From positions 960,001 to 1,024,000 of the forward strand of contig CAXXYH010000003.1 of NCBI GenBank assembly GCA_963677925.2: 64,000 nt of DNA, written 5' to 3'. The notes under the pieces were generated by a model. It made no database searches, had not been told where the DNA came from, and worked only from the letters and a program-made list of their open reading frames with translations. The translations under genes were made by a program, and so were the position numbers. Position 1 is the first letter of the stretch, and every line of letters begins with the position of its first letter. Positions 6,780 to 44,442 of the stretch are shown here, piece by piece. The stretch is from Spirochaetia bacterium. Lineage in GTDB: Bacteria > Spirochaetota > Spirochaetia > UBA9216.

Positions 6780-6810
6780 GAAGCTTCCTATAAAACCAGA
6801 ACAGACGGCG

Positions 6811-29610: not shown

Positions 29611-30240
29611 TCAGCTCTGAAGGCTTCCAATATATTCTTCGATAGCACTCGTAAAACCGTCACGAAATGACGCTTTCTGCTCTTCATCAATCGCAGGCAT
29701 ATCCTCATTCAGATGCCTGATGTATTCAGCAGCTCCTCCTTCACGGTAGCCGGTGACCATAACAGGAGTAAGATCCTGTTCTAATAGCCATATTGTCGGA
29801 TATCCCTGAACTTCAAGCATCTGGGCCAGTATCTGGTTGTGCTGAACCTGTTCCTCAGAAAGCTCGAAAGTATTCGGAAAATCAAGAAAAAGGAGGACGA
29901 GATTCTCATCAGCATAAGCTTTGAACTCATCTGTTGTAAAAACTTCGGCACTGAGCTTCTTGCACCAGACACACCAGTCGGAACCGGTAAAATCGACAAG
30001 AATTGATTTATCTTCGGCCATTGCGGTTTTATATGCTTCACGTATATCTGTTACCCATCCCTCAGGCGGATAAACAGCCTGTGGTGCATCAGTCTCAGAG
30101 ACTTTCTGTTCCGAATTTTCTGTGACAGCAGGGGTTTCAGTTGATGGCTCTGCAGTTTCACTCTTACCCGCACTGCATGCTGTGGAAGTTAAAATTAATG
30201 ATGTAACAATAAAAAATATCCCGATAAAGTGCTTTTTCAT
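29611..30240 (-). CDS. Exported (probably lipoprotein) thioredoxin-family thiol-disulfide oxidoreductase
   Basis: FTGSDWCVWCKKL, LFLDFP, VQGYPT; signal peptide ending STAC. Confidence 0.88.
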   Translation of the reverse strand: MKKHFIGIFFIVTSLILTSTACSAGKSETAEPSTETPAVTENSEQKVSETDAPQAVYPPEGWVTDIREAYKTAMAEDKSILVDFTGSDWCVWCKKLSAEVFTTDEFKAYADENLVLLFLDFPNTFELSEEQVQHNQILAQMLEVQGYPTIWLLEQDLTPVMVTGYREGGAAEYIRHLNEDMPAIDEEQKASFRDGFTSAIEEYIGSLQS

Positions 30241-30246
30241 ATTATG

Positions 30247-30275
30247 AATATACTACTTCATCGGGATGACGACAA
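30247..30275 (-). promoter_or_regulatory. sigma70-type promoter, probable leaderless transcript
   Basis: TTGTCG-N17-TATATT-N6-ATG(30240). Confidence 0.55.
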
Positions 30276-30333
30276 TATATAATTTTTTTTATATTGAAGA
30301 TTATAAAGTTATTAACTTGTCATTTTGTCTGTA

Positions 30334-31653
30334 CTAAATAAATCCCATTGCCCGGGCCTGACCGCTCAATTCTTCCCTGAAATCAGGATGAGCTATTTCA
30401 ATAAGCTGCTTTGTCCTGGAGCTTACGGTCCGCCCTCTCAGGTGGGCCACTCCGTACTCGGTTACAACATAGTCAATATCGTGTCTTGGAACAGAAACTA
30501 TCGAACCCGGTGTTAAAGTCGGCGTTATGGTCGATATTGATCCGCCTTTGGCTGTTGAACGCAGGGCTATAATTCCTTTTCCATTCCTGCTCATAACTGC
30601 ACCCCGGTGAGTATCCAGCTGTCCGCCGGTACCGGAGAACTGAGTGGTACCGATAGACTCGGAACAGACCTGTCCGGTCATATCAACTGAAAGCGCTGTA
30701 TTTATGCTTATCATGTTGTCATTCTGAGCAATGACATAGGGGTTGTTAACATAGCTGCCTTTAAGCAGCAGAACACCCGGATTATTGTCTATCCAGTCAT
30801 ACATATTCTGAGTTCCCATAGCAAAAGTACAGACAAATTTGCCGGGCCAGAAATTCTTGCGAAGGTTTGTAACAACTCCCTCTTCAAATAGTTCAATCAT
30901 TGATTCGGTAAACATCTCGGTATGGATTCCCAGATCCTTTTTACCTTTAAGAAGTTTAGCTACGGCATTTGGAATTCCTCCGATGCCAATCTGAAGAGTC
31001 GAGCCGTCACCGACAAGTTCTGCAATATGTGCAGCTATCTGTTCTTCTGTTTCACTGGGCTGGGGAATTGGTATGGTGGGAAGCGGATTCTCATATTCTA
31101 CAATCGCATCAACCTGAGATATATGAACCTGAGTCTCTCCATGCATGTACGGTACTCTAGGGTTAACTTCAAGTATGATTTTATCGGCGAGTGCCATTAC
31201 TTCATGCTCATAGACATTGGAAATACCGAGGTTGAAATATCCAGATTTAGCCTGCATCGGTGTAACAGCACCCCAGAAAACAAGATAATTCCCCTCCTCT
31301 TTCTCGGCCATAGCCTTTTCAAGTCCTGCCCGATGGAGGTTATTAGGCATATAATCTACAATTTTATATCCGAGTTTCGCAGCCTTTCTTGTTGAAGGAC
31401 CGAAAAACCAGTTGTCGTTACAGAATTTACCTTCGTATTTTTTTTCCTGACAGAACGGAAAATCTCCCAGATTCAGACAGGAGCCGACCTTCAGAAAATC
31501 AAAATTATCCTCATATTTATGAACCTGTGTAAGAAAGCCCTGGGCTTCCATGGCGGCCATTCCAACGATTACCGTAGCTTTTCTCGGTAATGTTTTAACA
31601 GCTTCTTCGATTGATTTAAATTTTTTCTTATATTCATCTTCCCACTTTGTCAT
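30334..31653 (-). CDS. Acetyl-CoA hydrolase/transferase family CoA transferase (4-hydroxybutyrate CoA-transferase-like)
   Basis: LQIGIGGIPN, GIHTEMF, SGTGGQLD, VVTEYGVAHLRG, IAHPDFREEL; start moved to ATG 31653 behind GGAGGT. Confidence 0.9.
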   Translation of the reverse strand: MTKWEDEYKKKFKSIEEAVKTLPRKATVIVGMAAMEAQGFLTQVHKYEDNFDFLKVGSCLNLGDFPFCQEKKYEGKFCNDNWFFGPSTRKAAKLGYKIVDYMPNNLHRAGLEKAMAEKEEGNYLVFWGAVTPMQAKSGYFNLGISNVYEHEVMALADKIILEVNPRVPYMHGETQVHISQVDAIVEYENPLPTIPIPQPSETEEQIAAHIAELVGDGSTLQIGIGGIPNAVAKLLKGKKDLGIHTEMFTESMIELFEEGVVTNLRKNFWPGKFVCTFAMGTQNMYDWIDNNPGVLLLKGSYVNNPYVIAQNDNMISINTALSVDMTGQVCSESIGTTQFSGTGGQLDTHRGAVMSRNGKGIIALRSTAKGGSISTITPTLTPGSIVSVPRHDIDYVVTEYGVAHLRGRTVSSRTKQLIEIAHPDFREELSGQARAMGFI

Positions 31654-31670
31654 AGTACCTCCAATTATGC

Positions 31671-31713
31671 ATGAATCACCTCTCATTTTAAGGCTATAAA
31701 TTCTATCTGTCAA
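31671..31713 (-). promoter_or_regulatory. Promoter plus cluster operator copy 1 (CoA transferase)
   Basis: TTGACA(31713-08)-N17-TAAAAT(31690-85) overlapping ATGAGAGGTGATTCAT(31686-71). Confidence 0.85.
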
Positions 31714-31728
31714 GTTTTTATATGCTTA

Positions 31729-32871
31729 TCAGCTTTTAAGGCCGCTGCACATGGGTCCTGCAAGTTCTTTTACGACCTCAACAGGATCTTCGATATTTCC
31801 GCTGAAATAAAATTCAATACCAAGAAAATGCGCAATACCGATAAGAAAGTTCGATGCAACAACCTTGTCATCGATACGAATATCTGTCAGATTTTTAAGG
31901 TATCCGCTCTCAAATTTATTGTAATATTCTCGGGCAGTAGGCCTGATTATAAACTCGGCTTCCCGCACTATCTGATAATTTTGAATATGTGTTTCAAAGT
32001 ATTTCAGAAAAATAATCATCCCCTGAAGCTCAGCTTCCATACGTCCAAGATCTCTGGACAGATAGATGGAAATATATTTTCGAAGCTGTACTCCGAAAAA
32101 CAGGACAACTTCTCTGAAAAACTCTTCCTTGCTGCTGAAATAAATATAAAAGGTCCCTACCGCATAACCGGCAGCCCGCGTTATTTCATAGATATTGACC
32201 TTATAAAAGCTGTGTTCGGCAATGAGCTTGGTCCCTGCCAGAATCAGTTTGGTCCTGGTATCACAGTCATCCATAGAATCTGCAGCGGAGGGGGCTTCAA
32301 TTTTCAGGAAATCAAAGTCTGCCGGCGGATCAACCGAAAATATTCCCTGATATACAAGGTCTTTTAAAAACTCTGCCGTTACATGATCCCGTGTAAAGCA
32401 GGGCCGTCTAAGAAGAAAACGGATACTCCCTACTATATAGAGGTACTCGCTGATCTTCATATCCCTGCCGTAAACAGCTTTCAGTACAGACAGGTATATA
32501 TCCCTCAGTCTCCGCTCATACTCGGGAAACCGGTACTCACCTTCGCGGAAAATATTGATATAAGCGAGGTCATTGCTGTTGCTTTCAAGAATAAGACTGA
32601 AAAAGGAAACAAGACGCTGTTCAACACTATCTCCGTTTAAACGGGTAAAACGCTTAGCATGAATCTCAAGAAACTCATCGAGTATGGCGGTGAATATTTC
32701 TTCCTTGTTTTTAAAATATCGATAAAAAACACCGTTGGACAGCTCAGCCGAACGGCAGATCTCTGCTATTGAAATAGCATCATACCAATTCTCTGAAAAA
32801 AGCATTGTAGCCGATGCTATAAGTTTTTCCCGGGTGATGGTTTTTCTGTCTTTATCTGCCGTCGAACTCAA
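31729..32871 (-). CDS. Tandem (double) TetR/AcrR family regulator
   Basis: Two TetR HTHs: SIAEICRSAELSNGVFYRYFKNKEEIF and NIYEITRAAGYAVGTFYIYFSSKEEFF; probable TTG start at 32871 behind GGAG. Confidence 0.9.
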   Translation of the reverse strand: MSSTADKDRKTITREKLIASATMLFSENWYDAISIAEICRSAELSNGVFYRYFKNKEEIFTAILDEFLEIHAKRFTRLNGDSVEQRLVSFFSLILESNSNDLAYINIFREGEYRFPEYERRLRDIYLSVLKAVYGRDMKISEYLYIVGSIRFLLRRPCFTRDHVTAEFLKDLVYQGIFSVDPPADFDFLKIEAPSAADSMDDCDTRTKLILAGTKLIAEHSFYKVNIYEITRAAGYAVGTFYIYFSSKEEFFREVVLFFGVQLRKYISIYLSRDLGRMEAELQGMIIFLKYFETHIQNYQIVREAEFIIRPTAREYYNKFESGYLKNLTDIRIDDKVVASNFLIGIAHFLGIEFYFSGNIEDPVEVVKELAGPMCSGLKS

Positions 32872-33619
32872 TAAGTATCTCCATGAAAAGCGCAGGATCT
32901 TCAATCATCAGAGAGTGGCCTACATGACTGATCTCTTTGTAATCACCATGGAAAGCTTCGGCTGTCTGCCTTCCCATATCCTCAGTGATTAGAGGATCAA
33001 GTGCACCGCGTACAAATAAAACCGGCTCACTGAATTTTGATGCTTCAGTGCTGTAATCAGCACGCTCAAGGGCCCTTGGGTTTCCCGCATAGGATAATTT
33101 ATTCATTAACATAGCTTCATCTGCTAAAAGATTCAAGATATCCTCATCCTTACAGGTTGGAACCATAGCGGCGATGGCGGCCTTTATCATATCACGGTTG
33201 GTCTTATACAGTTCAATGACACTGTAATGCTCTTCCGGAGTTTTAAGACCGTATACAGGGCCGGAATCAATAAGCAGCAGTTTCCCGACCTTCTCAGGAT
33301 AATGCAGGCCGAGAGCCATGGCGACAGGACCTCCAAGTGAATGACCGACAACCAGACATCCCGAAATTTCAAGTTCATCCAGAAGATCATTCAGGTAATC
33401 TGCATATAAATTGATATCAGATTCTTCAATCTGATCCGAACGTCCGAAATTAATCATATCAGGAGCGATAGTCCGGTATCCGGGAATATCCATTACTTCC
33501 CGGAACCAGACATGGGATCCTGTATTACCATGGATATAAAGAACCGGGCTGCCCTCACCTTTTTCCTGATAATACAGTTTGTGATTCTTAATACTTATGT
33601 ATTTGCCCGGTTTATCCAT
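32852..33619 (-). CDS. Alpha/beta serine hydrolase (esterase/depolymerase-like)
   Basis: IHGNTGS oxyanion region, GHSLGG nucleophile, Asp in ALDPL, His in VGHS. Confidence 0.88.
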   Translation of the reverse strand: MDKPGKYISIKNHKLYYQEKGEGSPVLYIHGNTGSHVWFREVMDIPGYRTIAPDMINFGRSDQIEESDINLYADYLNDLLDELEISGCLVVGHSLGGPVAMALGLHYPEKVGKLLLIDSGPVYGLKTPEEHYSVIELYKTNRDMIKAAIAAMVPTCKDEDILNLLADEAMLMNKLSYAGNPRALERADYSTEASKFSEPVLFVRGALDPLITEDMGRQTAEAFHGDYKEISHVGHSLMIEDPALFMEILIEFDGR

Positions 33620-33640
33620 CTTTACATCCTTATTTGAATT

Positions 33641-34342
33641 CTATATTCCCAGATAAGCCTGCAGAACATGCGGATCGTTAGCCAGCTTTTCTGACGAATT
33701 CTCCATAATTATACTTCCGTTTTCCAGTATATACCCTCTGTCAACTGCCCGGAGGCTTTCCTTTACATTCTGCTCTGTAACCAGAACAGAAATATCCTTC
33801 TTCATGTCCTTCAGTATTGTAAATAATTCAGAAACGATCGAAGGCTGAAGCCCCAGAGAAGGTTCATCAAGGATAAGAAGCTTCGGAATCGACATAAGGG
33901 ATCGGCCGATTGCCAGCTGACGCTGCTGACCGCCGCTCATGGTCCCTGCATGCTGAGCCTTCCGCTCCTTAAGGATCGGAAAGATTGCATAAACTTTCTC
34001 AAGCATTTCTTCCTGCCTAGTCTTCGCATGCGGAATAAATGAAGAACCTAAAAGAAGGTTCTCATAAACTGAAAGAAAGGGAAAAAGCTCCCTTTCCTGG
34101 GGAACCAGGGCTATGCCCGACCGTGCAACCAGATGAGTTTCCATGCCGGTTACAGGCTTTCCGTCAAAAATAATTTCACCTGAAGCAGGCTTTACCATAC
34201 CCATAACAGCGTTAATCAGGGTTGTTTTTCCTGCACCGTTGGGGCCGAAAAGTCCGACAGATTCTTCACCGATCGACATGCTGAGATCTCTGATTACATG
34301 CAGCTTTCCGTAATAACAGTTAAGATTTTTTATTTCAAGCAT
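33641..34342 (-). CDS. Liv-type ABC transporter ATP-binding subunit (LivF-like)
   Basis: GPNGAGKT, MSGGQQRQLA, LILDEPSLGL. Confidence 0.93.
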   Translation of the reverse strand: MLEIKNLNCYYGKLHVIRDLSMSIGEESVGLFGPNGAGKTTLINAVMGMVKPASGEIIFDGKPVTGMETHLVARSGIALVPQERELFPFLSVYENLLLGSSFIPHAKTRQEEMLEKVYAIFPILKERKAQHAGTMSGGQQRQLAIGRSLMSIPKLLILDEPSLGLQPSIVSELFTILKDMKKDISVLVTEQNVKESLRAVDRGYILENGSIIMENSSEKLANDPHVLQAYLGI

Positions 34343-35061
34343 CAGAGTGCACCTCCGAGATAAGCTTTGATTACTTCAGGATTCTGAACAACCTTTTCGT
34401 ACGGGCCTTCTGCAATCAGTTCTCCGGAATCAAGAACAACAACCCTGGTGGTAGTTTCCTTGATAACACCCATAACATGCTCAACAACCCCTATTCCCAG
34501 ATTCTGTTCAACAGCTATCTTCTTTACAAGATCGATAACATTATGTGTTTCATCGGCATTAAGCCCTGCCATGATTTCATCAAGGAACAGAATCGTCGGA
34601 CCGGTGGAAAGTGCATGGGCAATTTCCATCATCTTTATTTCAAGAATATTAAGCTTACTGACAGGCCTTGTAATATTTTTCAGACCAAGGTAATCACAGA
34701 GTTTTTCAGTCTCTGCGGCGGCTTTACGCTGCGACATACCCTGCGCAAACACAAAACCTACCATTATATTCTCTTTTAAACTGAGATTCTCGAGCGGGTG
34801 TATAAGCTGATATGTACGGGCTATACCCATTCTTGCTCTCAGATGCGGAGCCATATAAGAGATATCCACACCGTTGAAGTGGATGGTTCCTGATGTGGGA
34901 TTTATAACTCCCGAGATCAGGTTAATAAGCGTTGTCTTACCTGCTCCGTTCGGTCCGATTATACCGACGATTTCACCGCGTGATATTGTCAGATCAACAC
35001 CGTTAACAGCCTGCAGACCGCCGAAGCGCTTGGTTAAACTTTTGATTTCGAGATCAGCCAT
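34342..35061 (-). CDS. Liv-type ABC transporter ATP-binding subunit (LivG-like)
   Basis: KRFGGLQAV, GPNGAGKT, LFLDE, VEHVM, VIKAYLG. Confidence 0.93.
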   Translation of the reverse strand: MADLEIKSLTKRFGGLQAVNGVDLTISRGEIVGIIGPNGAGKTTLINLISGVINPTSGTIHFNGVDISYMAPHLRARMGIARTYQLIHPLENLSLKENIMVGFVFAQGMSQRKAAAETEKLCDYLGLKNITRPVSKLNILEIKMMEIAHALSTGPTILFLDEIMAGLNADETHNVIDLVKKIAVEQNLGIGVVEHVMGVIKETTTRVVVLDSGELIAEGPYEKVVQNPEVIKAYLGGAL

Positions 35062-35987
35062 TATTTTGCCTCCCTTGAAAATCTTGATTTAATCAGGCCG
35101 GTGATTCCGGCAGGCATAACAAGTATAACAAACACAATAATGAGTCCGTAAACAATCAGATGACCGTATGGTATATAGAGCTTTAGGTACTCCGAAACTA
35201 TTCCAAGCAGAAGGGCGCCTACAACCGGGCCCCATGTTCCGTACATTCCGCCCAGCAGCGACATGGCCAAAGGCAGAAGGGTGTAGTCAGAACTGAAGCT
35301 GCTGTCCGGAGTTACAAAACCGTACATCTGGGCATAAACACCGCCGGCAAGGCCCTGTATACCTGAAGTAATACCGAATACGACTACAAGATACATAAAG
35401 ATATTTATTCCGCTGGTTCTTGCTACAATTTCATTATTACGGATTGAAGTAAGGGCCAGGTGAAACTTTGAACGCTCAAAATACATAGATGCGGCAATGG
35501 CTCCTATAGCGAGGGCAAGGGTCAGAAAGTACATTCCGTAGGAATTACCGCCGAAGATTACATCTTTTAAAACAAGACCTTCAGGTCCTCCGGTAACATC
35601 ATTCCAGTTCCTGATGATTATTTTGAAAATTTCGGCAGCTGCAAGAGTCGTTATCGCAAAATACATACCCCGGAGCCTCAATACTATGAATCCCATACCA
35701 AATGCCACAAGACCGACAAGAACTCCACCAATCAGGATAGACGGTAAAGCTGGAATACCAAGTTTAAGACAAAGCAATGCAGAAAAATAGCTGCCGATTC
35801 CGAAAAATCCGGCAATACCGAATGACAGCTGTCCGGAACGAATCAGCATATCCCAGCTTACAGCCAGCGCCATATAAGTCATCACTGTACGTGCTATTGA
35901 CTGAGGATATGGACCTGAAAAAAGCGGAAACAGTATTGCAAACACCGCTACTAAAGCGGCAGGAATTATCATTTTCAGGTTTTTCAC
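35061..35987 (-). CDS. Liv-type ABC transporter permease (LivM-like)
   Basis: GQLSFG, LRLRGMYFAITTLA, TGGPEG, LGGMYGTWGP; GTG start. Confidence 0.92.
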   Translation of the reverse strand: MKNLKMIIPAALVAVFAILFPLFSGPYPQSIARTVMTYMALAVSWDMLIRSGQLSFGIAGFFGIGSYFSALLCLKLGIPALPSILIGGVLVGLVAFGMGFIVLRLRGMYFAITTLAAAEIFKIIIRNWNDVTGGPEGLVLKDVIFGGNSYGMYFLTLALAIGAIAASMYFERSKFHLALTSIRNNEIVARTSGINIFMYLVVVFGITSGIQGLAGGVYAQMYGFVTPDSSFSSDYTLLPLAMSLLGGMYGTWGPVVGALLLGIVSEYLKLYIPYGHLIVYGLIIVFVILVMPAGITGLIKSRFSREAK

Positions 35988-36910
35988 AGTTTCCTCCCCT
36001 TTAACGAACGGCTTAGAATTACAACAACAATAAGAACAAAGAATATTATATTTGACCAGCCGCTGAAGCCTCTGAATGATGAGATGAAACTTTCAGCTAC
36101 ACCAAGTCCTATACTTCCCAGAAGTACTGCAGGAAGATTTCCTATTCCGGCCATTGCAACCAGACAGAAAGATTTCATGGTGAAGGGTCCTCCGGCTGTG
36201 GGAAATATTGACATCTTTGTGAGAAAGAATGCGCCCATGATTCCAAGAAGTGCTGATGATATTGAAAAAATAAGCATGTATGTTAAATGTACATTAATTC
36301 CGACTATTGCGGCGCCTCTTGGATTCTGGCCGACGGCAAGTGCTGCCTGACCAATCCTGGTCTTCTTAAGAAAAAGAAGGAGGCCGACAAGCATGATAAC
36401 AGCCACCGCAACAAAAATAAAATCGTAGGTACCGAAACTCAATTCACCGATTTTGGCAGAAGCCGTTACATAATCGAGTGAGAGTTTTCTCGGCTGTGAT
36501 GTTGCAAAAAGGTTGATCCCCTGACTGATGACCATTGCAATACCGAATGTAAGTATCAGCTGATTAAGCTCGGGTGCGCTTATTGCTCTTTTAATAGTAA
36601 TCTGATAAAGGATTGCTCCGATTACGAACATTACAGCTGCCGTAAGAAACATTGCAATAAGAGGATCAATACCAGTCATCCTGCTTATGTTATAGGTCAT
36701 GTAGGCCGCAAGAATCATCAGCTCGCCGTGGGCAAGGTTGACGATGTGAACAATTCCAAGGACAAGAGCCATTGGAAGAGCAATAGCCGCATACAGACCG
36801 GCTCTCTGGACACCGAATATCAGAACAGTCGGTTTCCATATAAGCAGAATCACTGCAATAATGATGGATAGCGCTACCGGTACAATTACCTTTAGCTTTC
36901 TATTCGACAT
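35984..36910 (-). CDS. Liv-type ABC transporter permease (LivH-like)
   Basis: IVNLAHGE, KTRIGQA, AAIVGIN. Confidence 0.92.
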   Translation of the reverse strand: MSNRKLKVIVPVALSIIIAVILLIWKPTVLIFGVQRAGLYAAIALPMALVLGIVHIVNLAHGELMILAAYMTYNISRMTGIDPLIAMFLTAAVMFVIGAILYQITIKRAISAPELNQLILTFGIAMVISQGINLFATSQPRKLSLDYVTASAKIGELSFGTYDFIFVAVAVIMLVGLLLFLKKTRIGQAALAVGQNPRGAAIVGINVHLTYMLIFSISSALLGIMGAFFLTKMSIFPTAGGPFTMKSFCLVAMAGIGNLPAVLLGSIGLGVAESFISSFRGFSGWSNIIFFVLIVVVILSRSLKGRKL

Positions 36911-36937
36911 ATAAATTCTCCTGTGGATGGGTGAAAG

Positions 36938-36963
36938 AGGGAAACCTCAGCTGAGGTTTCCCT
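36938..36963. repeat. Perfect 26-bp palindrome (stem-loop) between binding-protein and permease genes
   Basis: AGGGAAACCTCAG/CTGAGGTTTCCCT. Confidence 0.8.
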
Positions 36964-36978
36964 TCTTTTTAAAAGATA

Positions 36979-38202
36979 TTATCTTTTGCCCCAGGGTGTA
37001 AACGGGTAAACAGGTGCGGCTGTTGCGTATTCGAACGGCCATATAACTTCCTGTGAACCATTCTGCCACTGCAGAATTTTCTGGTTTCTGATTCCCTGGT
37101 TCTGAATTACATTTGACGGGCTGAAAGTGATGGTTTCTCCAAGAGGAGATTCATAGCTTGTTTTCTTTGTAGCTGCTACGAGAGCTTCGGTATCAAGTGT
37201 ACCTGCTCTTTCAATAGCTTCTGCAACAATGTAAACAGCTGAGTATGAAAGCGGTGCAAAGTATGTAGCCGGAACATTACCGTATTTAGCCTTGTATCCT
37301 GCTGTAAAGTTTTTACTTACATCACTTACCTTGTCGATTGAAGGTGCCCACATACCGTAGAGAGTTACGTTTTCTGCAAGTGCAGAATCACCGAAGTCTG
37401 AAGGCCATCCTGGAGGAGCTCCAACGTACAGAGGAGGATTAAAATCCATGGCTTTTGACTGTTCCATCAGAGGAAGAGCGTCTGCATCATAACCTGCCCA
37501 GATGAATACATCAGGCTTGTAGGCTTTTGCATGCTCAATTACTGCACTGTAATCTCCGCCGCCTGCTGCTGCTGACTGGAATGACTCTCCGTCGATGTCC
37601 ATGTCTGCAAAAAGGTACTTGGTTGCATCAAATGAAGCCTTGCCGAAAGGACCTTCTTCATAAGCGAGGAACCATCTGTCAATTTTAATCTGGGGGAATT
37701 TTTCAGCAATTGCAGCCCAGCCTTCTACATAGCTTGCGCCCTGGTTGTAGTCCCATGGATGAAGATGGAAATACCAGTCGGCATCTGCGCCCATTGCTTC
37801 TTCTGCAGTGTGGGAAGCCGCACCTGTCCAAACGGTAAGTTTCTTATACTTTTTAAGTGTAGGAATCTGACCAAGATGAACACCGCTGGACATACCGCCG
37901 ATGAAAACATCTACATTTTCTACTGTCGCAAGTCTCTCAAGAGCTGCGGCACCCTTCTCAGGTTTGAACTCACTGTCAATTACGACCAGTTCAAGAGGTC
38001 TTCCAAGAACACCGCCGTTCTTATTGATCTCATCAACTGCGAGCTGAGCAGCCTTGCTTCCCTGATCTCCGGTTATATCAGCAAGCGGCCATACACCACC
38101 AAGCTTAATCGGATCTTTTCCACCTTCCTGTTGTCCGCCGGCAAACAGTACTGCAGTACTGAGCAGAAGAACTGCAAGAAGCATTAGCTTTCGCATTGTC
38201 AT
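36979..38202 (-). CDS. Liv-type ABC transporter substrate-binding protein
   Basis: Signal ending LFAGGQQE; IKLG, LAVDEINKNGGVLGRPLELV, AEAIERAG; start at 38202 or 38196 behind GGAGGT. Confidence 0.92.
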   Translation of the reverse strand: MTMRKLMLLAVLLLSTAVLFAGGQQEGGKDPIKLGGVWPLADITGDQGSKAAQLAVDEINKNGGVLGRPLELVVIDSEFKPEKGAAALERLATVENVDVFIGGMSSGVHLGQIPTLKKYKKLTVWTGAASHTAEEAMGADADWYFHLHPWDYNQGASYVEGWAAIAEKFPQIKIDRWFLAYEEGPFGKASFDATKYLFADMDIDGESFQSAAAGGGDYSAVIEHAKAYKPDVFIWAGYDADALPLMEQSKAMDFNPPLYVGAPPGWPSDFGDSALAENVTLYGMWAPSIDKVSDVSKNFTAGYKAKYGNVPATYFAPLSYSAVYIVAEAIERAGTLDTEALVAATKKTSYESPLGETITFSPSNVIQNQGIRNQKILQWQNGSQEVIWPFEYATAAPVYPFTPWGKR

Positions 38203-38225
38203 ATCTACCTCCAAAAAAATGATAA

Positions 38226-38272
38226 CTGAATCTTCTCTCATTTATTATTGAATGACTATTTGCCGTTGTCAA
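38226..38272 (-). promoter_or_regulatory. Promoter plus cluster operator copy 2 (ABC operon)
   Basis: TTGACA(38272-67)-N17-AATAAT(38249-44), then ATGAGAGAAGATTCAG(38241-26). Confidence 0.8.
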
Positions 38273-38280
38273 GAAAAAAC

Positions 38281-38327
38281 TTGCGTCAAAACTGCCCTGA
38301 TGTTAATATTTTTGAGAGGTGATTCAG
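38281..38327 (+). promoter_or_regulatory. Promoter plus cluster operator copy 3 (alpha/beta hydrolase)
   Basis: TTGCGT(38281-86)-N17-TAATAT(38304-09, extended TG), then TTGAGAGGTGATTCAG(38312-27). Confidence 0.8.
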
Positions 38328-38344
38328 TTATTAGGAGGAATTTC

Positions 38345-39166
38345 ATGTCAGAAGTGATGATAAACGGAATAAATATCTATTACGAGGAAAAGGGTGACCC
38401 GACCTCGGGCGCGGCGCTTTTCTTCCTGAACGGCGTTATGGCATCAACCGGAAGCTGGGATCTGATGCTTCCCGTTTTTGAAAAAGCTGGGTTCCGCATA
38501 ATCCTTCATGACTTTCGTGCCCAGCTTAAATCCGGAAAACCCGAACAGACGCCGACATTCGATGAACATGTTGAGGATCTCAAAGGACTGATGGATCATC
38601 TTGGAATTTCAAGAGCATCATTTATAGGAACAAGCTACGGCGGCGAGGTTTTCATGTACTTTGCGGCTAAATACCCGCAGAAATGCTCCTCAGGTGTGAT
38701 CATCGATTCTGTGAGCGAATTAAGTCCCCTGCTTGAAGCGGCTGTAGGTTCATGGCTGACAGCTGCAGAACTCGGCAATGGCGAAGCATTCTATAACATC
38801 ATGCTTCCATGGCTTTACAGCAGCAGCTATCTTAAGAATAACCGTGATTTTCTCCTGCAGAGAGGAAGTCAGATGAACAGCCTGCCCGCAGATTACTTCA
38901 GCGGACAGGCGGATCTCTACCGTACTTTTCTTACTGTGGACATCACTTCCAGACTTCATGAGATAACAGCACCAGTTCTTGTATTGTGCGGTAAAGAAGA
39001 TATACTGAAACCGCCGACCTTTTCAGAAATAATTGCTGATAATATTCCTTCGGGAGAATTTATTTTAATCCCGGACTGCGGGCATGTGGCAATATTTGAA
39101 AAAGCCCATGAACTGAACGAACTGATCATGGGCTTTTATGAAAGGAAAAGACTTATCCCATCCTGA
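38345..39166 (+). CDS. Alpha/beta serine hydrolase (enol-lactonase/esterase-like)
   Basis: LNGVMAS, HDFRAQ, GTSYGG, EDILKP, CGHVA; start moved to ATG 38345 behind AGGAGG. Confidence 0.88.
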   Translation: MSEVMINGINIYYEEKGDPTSGAALFFLNGVMASTGSWDLMLPVFEKAGFRIILHDFRAQLKSGKPEQTPTFDEHVEDLKGLMDHLGISRASFIGTSYGGEVFMYFAAKYPQKCSSGVIIDSVSELSPLLEAAVGSWLTAAELGNGEAFYNIMLPWLYSSSYLKNNRDFLLQRGSQMNSLPADYFSGQADLYRTFLTVDITSRLHEITAPVLVLCGKEDILKPPTFSEIIADNIPSGEFILIPDCGHVAIFEKAHELNELIMGFYERKRLIPS

Positions 39167-40172
39167 TTACACAGGCAGCCCAGACAAAGCCTATACCGCC
39201 TGCAACAAAGACAACATTGTCTCCGTCTTTAATTCTGCCCAGTTTCAATCCTTCTTCAAGTGAAATCAGCTGGTCGTTCTGGCCTATATGGCCGTAATCT
39301 TCAAGATAAAAACTCTGTTCCGGTTTTAGATTGAATTCGTTTAGAAATGCTTCGTGCGTCCTGCGGTTGAAATGCAGAATACCAAGATAATCCAGACCTG
39401 AATCATCAAGCCCTGACTGCTCCAGAGACTCCCTTATAACAGCATAGAAATTGGGAACTGTTACCTCCTTGAGTTTCTCTTTAAAAAGATCATTATCCTC
39501 GATTGTGAAATACATCTTTTCTGCGTCTTCCGGCTTCATCGGCCAGTGTTTCGTGCCGCCGTATTTTACAGTACAGAGTTCAGAAAAACTTCCGTCGCCC
39601 TTGAAAGAAGATCCCATCAGGATATTCTTTTCGTAGCCGCCCTGAAGAATGGCCGCGCTTCCGCCGGCTCCAAGGTCGTACATAAAGGTAGTTTCAGAGA
39701 CCTTGTAATTAATAAAATCCCCGTTGCGGTATCCGCTGGCAAGAAGAACTGTTTTACATCGGCCTGAAGCGATAAGGCCCCTGGCTACTTCAAACCCGCT
39801 GATCATCGAACCGCACATAGCCTCCATATCGAATGACCAGGCGTTTTTAGCACCAAGCTTATCGGCAATATTAAGACCGGCAAGCCAGCAGACATAATCC
39901 TTATGCTGACCGCCGTTGTAAATAACGCAGTCAATAGCCATGGGATCTATATCCGCCATGGCTATAGCTTTTCTGGAAGCCTCCAGCGCCATAAATGCGG
40001 TTGTCTCATGCTCCTGAGCCATAGGCTTGCGTTTAAAACCCAGTTTTTCAATAACTATATTCTCGGGAACCCCGCTCTCTTCAGAGACCTTTGCCGCGTC
40101 CCAGAAAGTTTCAGGAATATACGTTCCCCATCCTCTTAATCCCACACAGGGATTATCAAATTTCATCTGCAT
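39153..40172 (-). CDS. FabH/KAS III-fold enzyme, non-canonical (Cys-His-His plus Asp)
   Basis: AWSFDMEAMCGS, ILHFN, DYGHIGQNDQ, GIGFVW. Confidence 0.88.
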   Translation of the reverse strand: MQMKFDNPCVGLRGWGTYIPETFWDAAKVSEESGVPENIVIEKLGFKRKPMAQEHETTAFMALEASRKAIAMADIDPMAIDCVIYNGGQHKDYVCWLAGLNIADKLGAKNAWSFDMEAMCGSMISGFEVARGLIASGRCKTVLLASGYRNGDFINYKVSETTFMYDLGAGGSAAILQGGYEKNILMGSSFKGDGSFSELCTVKYGGTKHWPMKPEDAEKMYFTIEDNDLFKEKLKEVTVPNFYAVIRESLEQSGLDDSGLDYLGILHFNRRTHEAFLNEFNLKPEQSFYLEDYGHIGQNDQLISLEEGLKLGRIKDGDNVVFVAGGIGFVWAACVIRMG

Positions 40173-40180
40173 AGTTTCCT

Positions 40181-40978
40181 CTACTTTGCGATTTGACGGG
40201 AACCGAATGTTACGCCTCCGGTAATTTCAATGGTAGTTCCGTCAATGGCTTCATTATCAACAACATGAAGCATCAGCTTTGCAATTTCTTCAGGAGCTAT
40301 CAGTCTTCCGATATGGACATCCTTCAAAATGGCATTAAGTGCATCCTGATTCATATTTGTCAGCATCGGAGTTCCAACATATCCCGGAGCCAGACCGACT
40401 ACCCTGATATTGCTTATACCCTTCATGTGAAACTCACCTGCAAGCAGCTTCGGCCACATTCCGACTGCTGATTTGGTAGCTGAATAGTTAAGCTGCCCCA
40501 CCTGCCCGATCTTGTTGACTGATGAAATTGTAAACAGAACACCTTCCCATCCGTTATCAACCATGATTGCTGCGGCTTCTCTGAGAGTCAGGAAGGTTCC
40601 TGAAAGATTTATGTTTATTACAGACTGAAAATCATCAAAACTCATTGTCCGTTTAACCTTTCCGGTTTCCTTGTCTGTATTAATCATAAGTCCGTCACGG
40701 ATAATTCCCGCACAGGGAACAACGATATTAACTGAACCATAGGTTTCGGCTGCTTTTTTCATCAGCTCTTTAACCTGATTCTCATCAGTAACGTTTACTG
40801 TAGTACCTGCAGCCTCTCCGCCTGCAGCCTGAATGTCAGCAACAACTCGATCGATGCTCTCCTGGTTTATATCACCAAGAAATACTTTTGCCCCGGCTTT
40901 TGCTATCGTCTTTGCTACGGCCTCACCGATGCCGCTTCCACCGCCTGTAACAACCAGAACTTTTCCCTTAATATCCAT
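40181..40978 (-). CDS. Short-chain dehydrogenase/reductase (FabG/PhaB-like, probably NAD-dependent)
   Basis: TGGGSGIG, LGDIN, AGIIRDG, YSATK, APGYVGT. Confidence 0.9.
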   Translation of the reverse strand: MDIKGKVLVVTGGGSGIGEAVAKTIAKAGAKVFLGDINQESIDRVVADIQAAGGEAAGTTVNVTDENQVKELMKKAAETYGSVNIVVPCAGIIRDGLMINTDKETGKVKRTMSFDDFQSVININLSGTFLTLREAAAIMVDNGWEGVLFTISSVNKIGQVGQLNYSATKSAVGMWPKLLAGEFHMKGISNIRVVGLAPGYVGTPMLTNMNQDALNAILKDVHIGRLIAPEEIAKLMLHVVDNEAIDGTTIEITGGVTFGSRQIAK

Positions 40979-40995
40979 ATAGCCTCCTGTTTATA

Positions 40996-41037
40996 CTGAA
41001 TCACCTCTCATTATAGTGCAGTTTTTATTACTGTCAA
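40996..41037 (-). promoter_or_regulatory. Promoter plus cluster operator copy 4 (SDR-FabH operon)
   Basis: TTGACA(41037-32)-N16-TATAAT(41015-10) overlapping ATGAGAGGTGATTCAG(41011-40996). Confidence 0.85.
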
Positions 41038-41045
41038 GAAAAAAA

Positions 41046-41091
41046 TTGACAGATAAAAGGCTTATGTTATAATAAATGAGAGATGATTCAC
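41046..41091 (+). promoter_or_regulatory. Promoter plus cluster operator copy 5 (thiolase-FabH operon)
   Basis: TTGACA(41046-51)-N16-TATAAT(41068-73, extended TG), then ATGAGAGATGATTCAC(41076-91). Confidence 0.85.
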
Positions 41092-41119
41092 TTATAACTT
41101 AACAAATGGAGGTTAAAAA

Positions 41120-42376
41120 ATGAGTAAAACCTGGATCACAGGTGCCTATAACACCAAATTCGGAACATTCTCTACAAAAAACAGAGAGACCGGCGAGATT
41201 ACAGATAATTACAGTTTTTATGAACTGATTAAGGAAGCGGGTAACGGAGCCCTTGAAGATGCAGGGCTTAACCCTTCCGAAATAGATGCGATTTGGATTG
41301 GGGCCTGTTCCCCCAGTCTGTTTGTAAACCAGGAGCATATCGGCCCCCTTGGACTTGAGGTTAATCCTGATAAATTCCGCTTTCTGCCCACAACAAGAGT
41401 AGAAGGAGCCTGCGCTTCATCTTCACTTGCACTCTATAACGCAATCTACGGAATTGAATCCGGCCGGTTCAAGAGAGTCCTTGTAATCGGTGCGGAGAAG
41501 ATGTCGCTGCTGCCGACCAGGGGAGTAACACATACTCTTGCCTGTTCTTCATACTGGCCTGAGGAAGGCGCAAACGGGATGACCTTTCCAGGGCTCTTCG
41601 CTGAATATGCGAAGGGATATCGCGATCACTATAAACTGGGCGATGAGACACTTGCAGATATGCTTGCAAATGTATCTGCACTTATGTACCGCAATGCTCT
41701 TGACAACCCGCTTGCCCACTTCGGCAAAGGTGCAGTACCGGAAAAGCTGGGCCTTTTTACCGCAGAAGCCATAAAAAACCTGCCTGACGAAAAGAATCCG
41801 ATGATCGCCGAACCGCTTAGACTGCATGACTGCTCGCTGGTTACAGACGGCGCTGCAGCAGTCATTCTTACCAATGAGGAGTTCTCGAAATCTGCATCAA
41901 AGCCGGTTCATGTTGCAGGAATCGCACAGGTTACCGAAAGGCTTCCGATAAGCGTACGACCCAATATGCACGAACTGATCGCAGGGAAAAGGGCTGTAGC
42001 CCAGGCATACGGAGAAGCCGGCATCACAGCTGCTGATGTGGACATTGCCGAAGTTCATGACTGCTTTACCATCAACCAGCTGCTGTGTACCGAAGCACTG
42101 GGATTGTCTGAAGACGGCAAATCGGGTTATGAATACATGGAAGGACGCTTCGACAAGGATGACAGGTGTCCGGTGAACCTGTCCGGCGGCCTGAAGGCAA
42201 AGGGTCATCCGGTAGGGGCTACAGGAGTATCGATGCATGCACTGCTTTATAAACAGCTCTGCGGCGAACCCATCGGTGCTGCACCCTCTGCGGGTACACC
42301 TGAAACTGCTGCAGTCCTGAATGTAGGCGGTTCTGCTGTCACAAACTGTGTTACAGTACTAAGAAGGGAGAGTTAG
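41120..42376 (+). CDS. Thiolase, SCP2/archaeal type (acetyl-CoA acetyltransferase)
   Basis: VEGACASSS, DCSLVTDGAAA, AEVHDCF, SGGLKAKGHPVGATG, LNVGG. Confidence 0.92.
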   Translation: MSKTWITGAYNTKFGTFSTKNRETGEITDNYSFYELIKEAGNGALEDAGLNPSEIDAIWIGACSPSLFVNQEHIGPLGLEVNPDKFRFLPTTRVEGACASSSLALYNAIYGIESGRFKRVLVIGAEKMSLLPTRGVTHTLACSSYWPEEGANGMTFPGLFAEYAKGYRDHYKLGDETLADMLANVSALMYRNALDNPLAHFGKGAVPEKLGLFTAEAIKNLPDEKNPMIAEPLRLHDCSLVTDGAAAVILTNEEFSKSASKPVHVAGIAQVTERLPISVRPNMHELIAGKRAVAQAYGEAGITAADVDIAEVHDCFTINQLLCTEALGLSEDGKSGYEYMEGRFDKDDRCPVNLSGGLKAKGHPVGATGVSMHALLYKQLCGEPIGAAPSAGTPETAAVLNVGGSAVTNCVTVLRRES

Positions 42377-42377
42377 A

Positions 42378-43388
42378 ATGGATGGAGTAATAATTGCCGG
42401 TACAGGGCTCTATGCCCCCGGTGATCCGATCTCAAATGAAGAAGTGCTTAAGCTCGCCGGTGTCGAGTTTGATGCACAGAAGATTGAAGATAAAATCGGC
42501 ATTAAAACAAGGCATATTGCACACCTCAGGGGCCTGGATGAGACTACTGCAGATTTCGCCGAAAAAGCATCAGCAAAAGCCATCGAAGCAGCAGGAATCA
42601 GTCCCGAAGATATTAATCTTTTTATAGTTGCAACAGACACCCCCGAATATATTTCGCCTGCTACTGCCATCCTTGTGCAGGGCCGGCTTCAGAAGGGACA
42701 GCGTAATACCGGAGCCTTTGATATTGCATCTTCATGCGCAAGTTTCACTTCTGCACTGGATGCTGCTGCCAGAATGACAGCCTGCGATCCTGAGATAAAA
42801 TACGCTGTTGTTGCAGGCGTGTACAATATGCCGGCTTTTTTCAGACCGGGGGACGCCTTCGGCTATTCGATTTTTGCCGACGGCGCAGGTGCAGTTGTCC
42901 TTAAAAAATGTACTGATGGTGAAGAAAACAAATATATCACCGGGCATAAACTCGCCGACGGCACCCAATGGGACTATATTGGCGTATATTCCGGCGGAAC
43001 AAGACAGCCGGTAACAAAAGAAAGACTTGATAATGATGAATGGGGGCTTCAGCTTCTTCAGCGGCTTCCGGGTGACCGTAACATAACACTCTGGCCGGAA
43101 TTCACTCTTGAGATGATTGAAAAGGCCGGATATACCGCAGATGAAATAGACCACTATATATTCACACAGATCAATGCCAGTGTGATAAAAGAAGTTATGT
43201 CCATACTTAAGCAGCCGATTGAAAAGGCTGTGATGGTGATGGATAAATACGGATATACCGGCTCCGGCTGCATTCCGATGGCTTTAGCACATGCCATATC
43301 AGAAGGAACAGTTAAACCAGGCGATAAGGTATGCACCGTAGCATCAGGCGCAGGACTCTCGGTCGCCGGGAATATTTTTGTAATCTGA
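42378..43388 (+). CDS. FabH/KAS III-fold enzyme lacking the His/Asn decarboxylation residues
   Basis: AFDIASSCASF (Cys kept), FADGAGAVVL, FTQIN and YGYTG where PHQAN and YGNTS are canonical. Confidence 0.88.
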   Translation: MDGVIIAGTGLYAPGDPISNEEVLKLAGVEFDAQKIEDKIGIKTRHIAHLRGLDETTADFAEKASAKAIEAAGISPEDINLFIVATDTPEYISPATAILVQGRLQKGQRNTGAFDIASSCASFTSALDAAARMTACDPEIKYAVVAGVYNMPAFFRPGDAFGYSIFADGAGAVVLKKCTDGEENKYITGHKLADGTQWDYIGVYSGGTRQPVTKERLDNDEWGLQLLQRLPGDRNITLWPEFTLEMIEKAGYTADEIDHYIFTQINASVIKEVMSILKQPIEKAVMVMDKYGYTGSGCIPMALAHAISEGTVKPGDKVCTVASGAGLSVAGNIFVI

Positions 43389-43446
43389 CCTGAATACTTT
43401 ATTTCTGCCTTCGCGGTTCCTATAATTTAAACATCAGGAGCAAATG

Positions 43447-43677
43447 ATGGCAGACAAAAAAGATAAAGTTGTAGATAATACAGCCGGAAGGTATTATATT
43501 GATTCCGGCTGTATAGCCTGCGGCTTATGTATAAACGAAGCACCGAAGTGCTTTAAAATGACAGAAAGTGAAGACTACGCCTATGTCTGCAGGCAGCCGG
43601 AAAACGAAAAAGAAGAAGCTGACTGCGCTGCAGCGATGGAGATGTGCCCGGTTAATGCTATCGGGAATAACGGCTGA
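43447..43677 (+). CDS. Monocluster ferredoxin
   Basis: CIACGLC...CPVNAI; AGGAG RBS. Confidence 0.9.
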   Translation: MADKKDKVVDNTAGRYYIDSGCIACGLCINEAPKCFKMTESEDYAYVCRQPENEKEEADCAAAMEMCPVNAIGNNG

Positions 43678-43692
43678 AAGGCGGAATAATCA

Positions 43693-44442
43693 ATGTATGA
43701 ACTTATCTCACCCATTTATTCAGAACTTTTTCCTTCAGAAAATCGAAAAACTGAGTTCTGCCTTGCAGAGGCTGAACGTGCAGCAGGTGCAAGTAAGATC
43801 TGCAGAATCCTTGATGTCGGCTGCGCGGACGGAGAACTTGCAGTGCTGCTTGCAGAGGACGGACATAGAGTCACAGGGATCGACCTCAGTACCGAAATGA
43901 TTCAAGCGGCAAAGCTGAGAAAAGCAGATACAGCTGATCGGATTCGGCAACAATTAGATTTTCAAGCAGCAGGAATGAAGGATATATCCTCATTCGGAAG
44001 TTTCGGACTGATATTATGTCTTGGAAACACCCTCCCCCACCTGAGTTCTGAAGATGCAGTAAAAACTTTTTTCAAAGATACACAAAAAAGCCTTCTTACC
44101 GGAGGCATATTCATACTTCAGATTCTGAATTTTGATTTAATTTTGAAAAACAGAAATGTGTCATTTGATGAGATAAAGACAGACCGTCATATCTTCAAGC
44201 GCAGCTATGAATTTACTGCTGATGATCGTATCAACTTTCACATTTCCCTTACTGACAGAAAATCCGGAATGACAGATTCCGACAACACAAAGCTGCTGCC
44301 GTTAACCAGACAGTTTATAGAAACGGAACTTAAGGCGGCAGGCTTTGATATAATAGAAGTTTTCAGCGGTTTTGACAGAATTACAGCGGGCGGCGGTTCC
44401 GCCGGCGGGACAGAGTTTGCCAGAGTTTACCTTGCCAGATAG
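43693..44442 (+). CDS. Class I SAM-dependent methyltransferase
   Basis: ILDVGCADG, GIDLS, CLGNTLPHL. Confidence 0.85.
   Translation: MYELISPIYSELFPSENRKTEFCLAEAERAAGASKICRILDVGCADGELAVLLAEDGHRVTGIDLSTEMIQAAKLRKADTADRIRQQLDFQAAGMKDISSFGSFGLILCLGNTLPHLSSEDAVKTFFKDTQKSLLTGGIFILQILNFDLILKNRNVSFDEIKTDRHIFKRSYEFTADDRINFHISLTDRKSGMTDSDNTKLLPLTRQFIETELKAAGFDIIEVFSGFDRITAGGGSAGGTEFARVYLAR

Follow-up and report, generated by a model that had tools for sequence, protein, structure and literature searches.

A TetR-controlled regulon with two altered FabH-fold proteins, proposed to take up and dismutate short 3-hydroxyalkanoate esters in a Spirochaetia bacterium

Gene content of the locus

The window analysed here is a stretch of 64,000 nucleotides from a Spirochaetia bacterium of the UBA9216 lineage (GenBank assembly GCA_963677925.2, contig CAXXYH010000003.1, positions 960,001 to 1,024,000). 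At 30334-43388 it carries a cluster of genes for an ATP-binding cassette (ABC) importer, two serine hydrolases, enzymes of CoA-thioester metabolism, a double TetR-family repressor and two proteins of the FabH fold, here called KAS_A and KAS_B. An original prediction, made from the bare sequence, had counted 13 genes at this place, and all of them were found by Pfam scan and open reading frame (ORF) listing. They are as follows.

30334..31653 (-), family-I CoA transferase of the 4-hydroxybutyrate / butyryl-CoA:acetate type, 439 aa, with its own promoter (AcetylCoA_hyd_C 8.9e-65)
31729..32904 (-), tandem (double) TetR-family repressor, 391 aa, last gene of the transporter operon (two TetR_N stretches, 2.2e-24)
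32852..33619 (-), alpha/beta serine hydrolase ABH1, 255 aa, predicted to be cytoplasmic (Abhydrolase_1 6.2e-25)
33641-34342 (-) LivF-like and 34342-35061 (-) LivG-like, two ABC ATPases (ABC_tran 1.4e-31 and 1.6e-25; BCA_ABC_TP_C 4.1e-10 in one)
35061-35987 (-) and 35984-36910 (-), two HAAT-type permeases (BPD_transp_2 1.5e-35 and 1.7e-29)
36979..38202 (-), periplasmic substrate-binding protein, 407 aa, with signal peptide (Peripla_BP_6 4.8e-51)
38345..39166 (+), alpha/beta serine hydrolase ABH2, 273 aa, predicted to be cytoplasmic (Abhydrolase_1 9.2e-25)
39153..40172 (-), KAS_A, FabH fold, Cys120 / Leu266-His267 / His295 (ACP_syn_III and ACP_syn_III_C)
40181..40978 (-), short-chain dehydrogenase (SDR), candidate 3-hydroxyacyl-CoA dehydrogenase, 265 aa (adh_short 2.7e-42)
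41120..42376 (+), SCP2-type thiolase, 418 aa (Thiolase_C_1 4.7e-30, Thiolase_N)
42378..43388 (+), KAS_B, FabH fold, Cys120 / Thr263 / Tyr293 / extra Cys298 (Pfam ACP_syn_III)

The genes fall into five transcription units, named by their promoters: P_sbp, from the binding-protein gene through the TetR gene (stated as eight genes, seven of which appear in the list above), P_coaT, P_abh2, P_sdr (SDR and KAS_A) and P_thl (thiolase and KAS_B). The P_thl genes are divergent from the P_sdr genes, and KAS_B starts 1 nt past the thiolase. Intergenic gaps in the cluster sum to less than 500 bases, which leaves no space for genes for acyl carrier protein (ACP), FabD, FabZ, an acyl-CoA ligase or PhaC, and the claim that the cluster holds none of these was upheld.

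Operator, promoters and repressor

A 14-base motif, TGAGAGRWGATTCA, was matched five times in the 64 kb when one mismatch or none was allowed. All five matches lie within the cluster, 0.10 were expected by chance, and none of 100 shuffled windows contained five. The expectation of one operator common to all five transcription units was confirmed by these copies.

Copy 1, TGAGAGGTGATTCA, 31672..31685 (-), abutting the -10 box of the CoA-transferase promoter (TTGACA-17-TAAAAT at 31713-31685)
Copy 2, TGAGAGAAGATTCA, 38227..38240 (-), transporter-operon promoter (TTGACA-17-AATAAT at 38272-38244)
Copy 3, 38313..38326 (+), ABH2 promoter
Copy 4, 40997..41010 (-), SDR/KAS_A promoter (TTGACA-16-TATAAT at 41037-41010)
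Copy 5, 41077..41090 (+), thiolase/KAS_B promoter (TTGACA-16-TATAAT at 41046-41073)

Alignment of the promoters gave one shared layout, consisting of an extended -35 element (TTGACA), a spacer of 16-17 nt, the -10 box, the motif at once, the ribosome-binding site (RBS) and the start codon. Every copy in the window lies immediately 3' of a -10 box and in the same orientation as its gene. The top four sigma-70-like sites in 30000-44000 (scoring 12, 12, 11 and 11 of 12) are operator-bearing promoters of the cluster.

The genome of the organism (G000; 5.04 Mb, 4 contigs, 99.6% complete) was scanned for the exact motif, yielding seven matches, namely the five in the cluster, C4:1733933 and C4:1906140. 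The operator is therefore not restricted to the window: the sixth copy, at G000:C4:1733933, looks functional, having the same -35/-10/motif/RBS layout, and is followed by genes for a MaoC-like dehydratase, an acyl-CoA dehydrogenase, EtfB and a ferredoxin-domain EtfA (locus L081, 5887-9563, outside the window). This brings the regulon to six promoters and about 17 genes, of which the window holds 13. The copy at C4:1906140 was rejected as a member, being without promoter context and internal to the coding sequence of a 526-aa ORF, where it has probably arisen by chance. That ORF has a signal-like N-terminal sequence.

At four of the six sites an ATG or TTG within the motif is in frame with the downstream gene. 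Because of these triplets three of the ORF starts first used, those of the CoA transferase, the binding protein and ABH2, were too long, and they were corrected to 31653, 38202 and 38345, respectively, each following a GGAGG box. The spurious N-terminal extension amounts to 11-31 residues and also affects MaoC. ORF-finder start positions tied to operator-internal ATG or TTG in the window are 31713, 38241 and 38252. A role of the motif as a translated leader was considered and rejected: no RBS accompanies it, the -10 box is immediately adjacent, and early stops occur at two sites.

The TetR-family protein contains two PF00440 stretches in one chain, NCBIfam models matching residues 20-100 and 211-311, and its gene has an internal DNA repeat with a spacing of 576 nt. 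The best NCBIfam model was AcuR, below its cut-off; the Bacillus FadR model matched weakly (59.9 bits). A non-palindromic motif fits a fused pseudo-dimer, that is, two TetR_N domains in one chain, and the tandem TetR is predicted to bind the asymmetric 14-bp motif as its operator. Mce3R of Mycobacterium tuberculosis has been reported as an atypical asymmetric TetR regulator with non-palindromic operators and lipid-metabolism genes (PMC13492129). The two are likened here by architecture (two TetR_N per chain and a non-palindromic motif in the present case), not by sequence; phylum, regulon and operator differ.

Related loci were obtained by scanning species-representative genomes with KAS_B, which gave at least 596 candidate stretches, at least 576 of them encoding a relative; the best 80 loci were used. 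The motif, again with at most one mismatch, occurs in 27 of the 37 loci that carry the tandem-TetR ORF family and in nine of the 43 others, two of which (L004 and L063) do have the TetR by tblastn. It was found in none of the Bacteroidales-type loci, which are without the regulator. When five further genomes with KAS_B were scanned for the exact motif, one match appeared, beside KAS_B in G288.

CoA-thioester enzymes

The closest solved relatives of the CoA transferase are 4-hydroxybutyrate CoA-transferases (3eh7, 3.7e-99 over residues 7-434). Among models it is closest to that for butyryl-CoA:acetate, but below the cut-off: with TIGR03948 it scored 282 bits, not reaching the equivalog cut-off of 674.8, so that specificity is not fixed by this model. 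The SDR, searched against solved structures at a threshold of 1e-24, found the (3R)-hydroxyacyl-CoA dehydrogenase of yeast MFE-2 (2et6, 1.1e-34) as its best match. For the thiolase this was an archaeal acetoacetyl-CoA thiolase (6esq_A, 1.2e-54). SCP2-type thiolases are marked by a nucleophilic Cys and an HDCF motif, and C98, H313-D314-C315-F316 and H363 were invariant in 10 orthologues, placing the enzyme in this type.

The gene under the sixth operator encodes the sole MaoC domain of the genome; MaoC enzymes are (R)-specific. Acyl-CoA_dh_1 was matched twice in the genome, once under the operator, by the sole protein of canonical length, and once more weakly in a 575-aa frame. Together with the SDR and the thiolase, the MaoC-type hydratase forms a trio like that of peroxisomal MFE-2/SCPx, with a (3R)-type dehydrogenase and an SCP2-type thiolase. 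The present enzymes differ in being separate bacterial proteins with an anaerobic, Etf-linked dehydrogenase and a direction that is probably partly reductive. PhaC_N had no match in the 99.6% complete genome, so any polyester used would be foreign.

Transporter and hydrolases

The importer has the make-up of the LIV-I/HAAT type, with a Peripla_BP_6 binding protein, two BPD_transp_2 permeases and two ATPases. The binding protein scored 57.4 bits with the LivJ/K model PRK15404, for which the cut-off is 477, and is thus not equivalent to LivJ or LivK by this model.

Both hydrolases were found intact, in agreement with the original prediction, with Ser, Asp and His kept in each: S94/D208/H235 of ABH1 are invariant in 18 orthologues and S97/D219/H247 of ABH2 in 10. 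No signal peptide was detected in ABH1 or ABH2. In the transporter operon no structural gene follows that of ABH1. The best solved relative of ABH2 is the metagenomic esterase MGS-M2 (4q3l, 4e-42), a carboxylesterase, on which a search of full-text literature returned no paper; the PcaD (3-oxoadipate enol-lactonase) model gave ABH2 105 bits against a cut-off of 256. In five of the 80 loci (L023:1032-2771 (-), also L033, L049, L075 and L077) the second ABC permease (BPD_transp_2) and the ABH1 orthologue are one reading frame of 579-587 aa, which argues that the transported compound is hydrolysed on arrival.

The FabH-fold pair

KAS_A and KAS_B are both non-canonical, as had been proposed, the Cys-His-Asn triad being altered in each, invariantly. 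Nor is either the housekeeping FabH: a canonical FabH (C/H/N) lies about 160 kb away with the type II fatty-acid synthesis (FAS II) set FabD, FabG, FabF, FabZ and FabV (G000:C3:836-845 kb). The placement typical of FabH, beside ACP, FabD, FabG, FabF and FabZ, was not found in the cluster.

Compared with E. coli FabH, KAS_A keeps Cys120, has Leu266 at the His position with His267 at +1, and has His295 for Asn. Its invariant residues (51 orthologues) also include Asn269, Arg271, Lys91, Tyr148, Arg149, Asn150 and Asp152. Arg271 aligns with an Arg of the organism's own FabH, at a position that holds an ACP-docking residue in E. coli FabH. In KAS_B (69 orthologues) Cys120 alone is kept, with Thr263 for His, Tyr293 for Asn and an extra invariant Cys298; the same invariance was seen in a smaller set of 18 orthologues. 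Judged by these residues, neither active site can be that of FabH.

The fold itself is that of FabH, as indicated by ACP_syn_III and ACP_syn_III_C and by a KAS_B model (pLDDT 84.2) with TM values of 0.80-0.87 to FabH structures. The folds nearest to this model by Foldseek were FabH and BioZ. KAS_A passes NCBIfam PRK06840, '3-oxoacyl-ACP synthase' (399.8 bits, cut-off 315), and its solved relatives include CerJ (4.9e-9) and PqsC (4e-11). Searches of solved structures with KAS_A and KAS_B returned FabH-type relatives only, and Foldseek with the KAS_B model and a protein atlas gave nothing past 'FabH fold'.

All three runs in which KAS_A and KAS_B were modelled as a complex gave an ipSAE of 0.93, whereas none of the three controls exceeded 0.47. 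At least 94% of contacts recur between the runs, the pLDDT of the partner is 89 or higher, and according to the model residues 87-95 of each chain may line the pocket of the other. Among solved complexes 58 of 80 attain this ipSAE mark, as do two of 110 mismatched pairs. Since FabH homodimers and PqsBC are solved, the heterodimer score may reflect likeness to known dimers, and homodimers remain compatible with it.

KAS_A and KAS_B resemble CerJ and PqsBC in their fold, in the retained nucleophilic Cys and in the altered His and Asn. Identity is low, however, and the residue sets differ; the known examples are biosynthetic, whereas the pair described here lies in a catabolic, importer-linked regulon. 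ChlB6 is a further acyltransferase of the KAS III fold.

The best relative of the thiolase, 6esq, comes from a complex of thiolase, 3-hydroxy-3-methylglutaryl-CoA synthase (HMGCS) and DUF35, of which PhlACB is another of the same type, and in the cluster a gene of the FabH/HMGCS fold likewise follows the thiolase by 1 nt. It differs in that no DUF35 gene lies alongside; a DUF35 partner was looked for and not found, and a 110-aa ORF downstream matched no significant family. A fixed thiolase-KAS_B complex appears unlikely, because other loci have a different thiolase type or have the thiolase elsewhere.

Conservation in related loci

The 13 proteins were searched by tblastn, and genes were counted in the 44 loci where KAS_B is flanked by 5 kb or more on each side. 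The genes are co-conserved, a point by which the original prediction could have been refuted. KAS_A, a hydrolase and a transporter are each present in 40 of the 44 loci, the CoA transferase in 38, the SDR in 35, a thiolase in 34 and the tandem TetR in 22. The four loci with no KAS_A nearby are L001, L008, L032 and L069. Since the motif still precedes the KAS_B region in L008 and L011, the regulon there seems to be scattered and not lost.

Several of the proteins have been exchanged. The thiolase is a classic PhaA/BktB-like enzyme in 29 loci and of the SCP2 type in 13, the longer MFE-2-like SDR of the window is replaced in most loci by a FabG/PhaB-like one, and the transporter is a Liv-type ABC system, a second ABC type or a sodium:solute symporter (19 loci). 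As far as family assignment can tell, the pathway keeps its steps even where a non-orthologous protein has taken over. Loci of the symporter type, mostly from Bacteroidales, have the order thiolase, SDR, symporter, CoA transferase, KAS_B, KAS_A, porin, hydrolase.

In the Bacteroidales-type loci (for example L057:12223-17405) the set after KAS_A starts with a protein of 168-277 aa that belongs to no family and an Alginate_exp-like porin, and continues with an alpha/beta hydrolase of 316-332 aa with an N-terminal extension and two proteins of no family (about 477 aa and 132 aa). This set could be an outer-membrane capture module.

Orthologues of KAS_B (E <= 1e-80) were present in 13 of 301 sampled genomes of the window's phylum, representing seven of 126 genera. 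Because of this patchiness the cluster is classed as an accessory capability, not core metabolism, on distribution. Relatives of KAS_B were found in Spirochaetota, Bacteroidota (Bacteroidales), Clostridia, Pseudomonadota (a metagenome-assembled genome, MAG, of Gammaproteobacteria) and a Bacteriovoracaceae MAG, and a search with KAS_A added Marinitoga-type Thermotogota. Spirochaeta isovalerica, Oceanispirochaeta and Marinitoga piezophila are cultured organisms among the carriers. One of the 80 loci, L032, has a gene like class-III polyhydroxyalkanoate (PHA) synthase (5990-7183 (+); TIGR01836 303 bits, cut-off 365) two genes upstream of a stand-alone KAS_B; this PhaC-like neighbour is taken as a hint only. 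Genes for ACP, malonyl transferase, dehydratase or tailoring enzymes were found in none of the 80 loci.

Proposed pathway

The regulon is very probably neither fatty-acid synthesis nor branched-chain amino-acid uptake. We read it, with moderate confidence, as a TetR-repressed system that takes up short (R)-3-hydroxyalkanoate esters, de-esterifies them in the cytoplasm and dismutates the products in CoA-dependent reactions; oligomers of 3-hydroxybutyrate (3HB) are a plausible substrate. In the scheme that follows, what is imported, which way the flux runs, which effector acts and what the KAS pair catalyses are all inferred.

The tandem TetR, bound to TGAGAGRWGATTCA beside each -10 box, would block transcription until an effector, probably a short acyl-CoA, frees it. 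The Liv-type ABC system would then import a small carboxylate ester, most likely an (R)-3-hydroxyalkanoate oligomer or ester such as that of 3-hydroxybutyrate, whose ester bonds would be opened by the two cytoplasmic serine hydrolases and possibly also by a KAS_A/KAS_B heterodimer. The CoA transferase, of the 4-hydroxybutyrate/butyrate type, would form the 3-hydroxyacyl-CoA. The SDR would oxidise one part of this, and the thiolase would cleave the product to acetyl-CoA. The other part would be dehydrated by MaoC and reduced by the acyl-CoA dehydrogenase with EtfAB to a saturated acyl-CoA, the CoA of which would be handed back to the incoming acid.

The original prediction of an imported ester or 3-hydroxyacid stands in part. 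It gains from the operator at the MaoC/Etf operon, from the PhaA/BktB and FabG/PhaB exchanges, from the permease-hydrolase fusion and from the lack of PhaC_N in the genome; 3HB oligomers were not singled out, and the best score with a PHA depolymerase model was 93 against 300.

All steps of the dismutation known from the fermentation of 3HB and polyhydroxybutyrate (PHB) by Ilyobacter polytropus and I. delafieldii (CoA transfer, oxidation, thiolysis, dehydration and reduction) are encoded in the regulon. The textbook pathway has no need of the ABC importer, the pair of cytoplasmic esterases, the tandem TetR or the two FabH-like proteins that the regulon has as well. The conversion of two 3-hydroxybutyrate to two acetate and one butyrate is given as -59 kJ (PMC10096456). 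With such a yield an ATP-driven importer would be economical for oligomers only.

A specific role, already put forward in the original prediction, can be suggested for the KAS pair by analogy, although we regard it as doubtful. KAS_A/KAS_B would be a heterodimeric 'ester thiolase', in which the acyl part of an oligo-(R)-3-hydroxyalkanoate is taken onto Cys120 and released by CoA as 3-hydroxyacyl-CoA. A precedent for cleavage of a polyester bond by CoA is PhaZ1 (PhaZa1) of Ralstonia eutropha, for which CoA-dependent thiolysis of PHB to 3HB-CoA is mentioned (PMC3430594, citing Uchino et al. 2007). Acyltransferases of the KAS III fold, with CerJ among the solved relatives of KAS_A, offer a second chemical precedent. 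PhaZ1 differs in having the alpha/beta fold and in acting on granules in a PHA producer, whereas the candidates here have the thiolase fold and a host with no PhaC_N match. If the suggestion is true, thiolysis by the pair would conserve the energy of the ester bond, as phosphorolysis does for imported oligosaccharides, and strict fermenters in at least five phyla could live on foreign storage polyester despite the cost of an ATP-driven importer.

Evidence against the pathway and alternative explanations

Several results weigh against the proposed pathway. No result names the substrate or singles out 3HB oligomers. The binding protein has no informative relative, its best solved structure reaching only 4.5e-15. 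With the PHA depolymerase model NF050089, ABH1 scored 93.3 and ABH2 78.4 bits (cut-off 300), over the N-terminal half only, and TIGR02240 gave 42.6 bits against a cut-off of 250.6, so neither curated cut-off for PHA depolymerases was reached. The hydrolases are about equally weak matches to PHA depolymerase, enol-lactonase, C-C hydrolase and esterase models, all far below the cut-offs. The SDR matches an (S)-specific type-II hydroxyacyl-CoA dehydrogenase (3.6e-31) almost as well as the (3R) enzyme, and the acyl-CoA dehydrogenase has the acryloyl-CoA reductase AcrC as its best model (559 bits, cut-off 640). MaoC, acyl-CoA dehydrogenase and Etf genes were found within 10 kb in none of the 80 related loci; because of this, and of the single exact-motif match in five other genomes, the sixth operon is assigned to the predicted regulon for this genome only. 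The genome also has seven strong (S)-type 3HCDH_N matches, four crotonases and three HpaB_N (AbfD-like) genes. With so many of these and only two Acyl-CoA_dh_1 matches, the operator-controlled dehydrogenase and Etf may serve several other, butyrate-forming routes. No part of the cluster is better conserved than the KAS pair, and since the monomer pathway needs no such pair, the proposed pathway leaves its central enzymes unexplained. Positions given for the additional genes of G000 are C4:1600710, C3:1585762, C4:2482210 and C3:756-763 kb.

The regulon could instead serve general fermentation or beta-oxidation of short- or medium-chain acyl esters or fatty acids (crotonate, butyrate or lipid-derived esters), with 3-hydroxyacyl-CoA as an intermediate only and with something other than a hydroxy-acid ester being imported. 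This is unlikely. The full set of thiolase, dehydrogenase, hydratase and acyl-CoA dehydrogenase/Etf with a CoA transferase would suit it, the hydrolases could be generic esterases like the metagenomic carboxylesterase nearest to ABH2 among solved structures, and the weak FadR match of the TetR points the same way. In a fermenting anaerobe without a partner, however, full oxidation of saturated acids is not favourable. The regulon moreover has its own (R)-type hydratase, of the MaoC family, although four crotonases sit elsewhere in the genome, and the KAS pair is likewise left without a role.

Two further explanations are each improbable. In a scavenging biosynthesis, an imported acid activated by the CoA transferase would prime a special lipid or polyketide on KAS_A (Cys/His/His, KAS I/II-like), with KAS_B a non-catalytic partner as PqsB is to PqsC. 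KAS_A does keep Cys120, Asn269 and Arg271 and has two His, BioZ with a CoA transferase is a precedent for priming by an unusual acyl-CoA and is among the nearest folds, and KAS_B lies near a PhaC-like gene in L032. Against this, the invariance of its cysteine suggests that KAS_B is probably catalytic, and the ACP, malonyl transferase, dehydratase and tailoring genes of such a route were found at none of the 80 loci. Hydrolases, importers and thiolases are the constant companions of the pair, and the operator also serves a reductive Bcd/Etf operon.

The other places 4-hydroxybutyrate (4HB), lactones, poly(4HB), acrylate or 3-hydroxypropionate where we place 3-hydroxybutyrate. It draws on the 4-hydroxybutyrate CoA-transferases nearest to the CoA transferase, on the enol-lactonase model of ABH2, on the three AbfD-like genes of the genome and on AcrC and AcuR as the nearest models of the dehydrogenase and the TetR, but all of the supporting model scores are below cut-off, the exact operator stands at none of the three HpaB_N genes, and the conserved thiolase and 3-ketoacyl/3-hydroxyacyl SDR would be needed neither for 4-hydroxybutyrate nor for acrylate.

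That the annotation is correct as it stands, with branched-chain amino-acid uptake beside fatty-acid synthesis and no common function, agrees with Pfam, NCBIfam and public-record names and is hardly credible in view of the single operator for all units, co-conservation across phyla, the binding protein's 57.4 bits where LivJ/K requires 477, the altered triads, the complete FAS II set elsewhere and a regulon without aminotransferase or keto-acid oxidoreductase.

Annotation and significance

Public records call the KAS genes ketoacyl-ACP synthase III, which is the mislabelling that had been predicted, and at least 576 species-representative genomes hold a KAS_B relative under this name. Reconstructions of anoxic sediments, digesters and guts mis-count such genes as lipid synthesis and amino-acid uptake, because the regulon is catabolic and the active site is not that of FabH. 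A search of full-text literature, with subscription journals outside its coverage, found no paper on the cluster or the KAS pair. Compared with known systems, the cluster would be a new form of short-chain hydroxy-acid fermentation, with a widespread, mis-annotated and uncharacterised enzyme pair.

If the substrate is debris of storage polyester, carriers of the regulon form a guild of anaerobes, so far unrecognised, that consume PHA oligomers. Should the pair cleave esters with CoA, this would be a new reaction of the thiolase superfamily, useful for converting bioplastic to CoA esters. Six sites of one motif also make the regulon well suited to studying how a tandem TetR works with an asymmetric operator.

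Other features

Just past the cluster, at 44381-46020 (-), lie genes for a single-domain TetR, a membrane protein of the ABC_trans_CmpB family and an HD-domain protein, with no operator motif. Within the transporter operon, the binding-protein gene and the first permease gene are 68 nt apart, and this interval contains a perfect 12-bp GC-rich hairpin (36937-36964). The hairpin could act inside the operon as a stabiliser or attenuator and so increase the amount of binding protein relative to permease.

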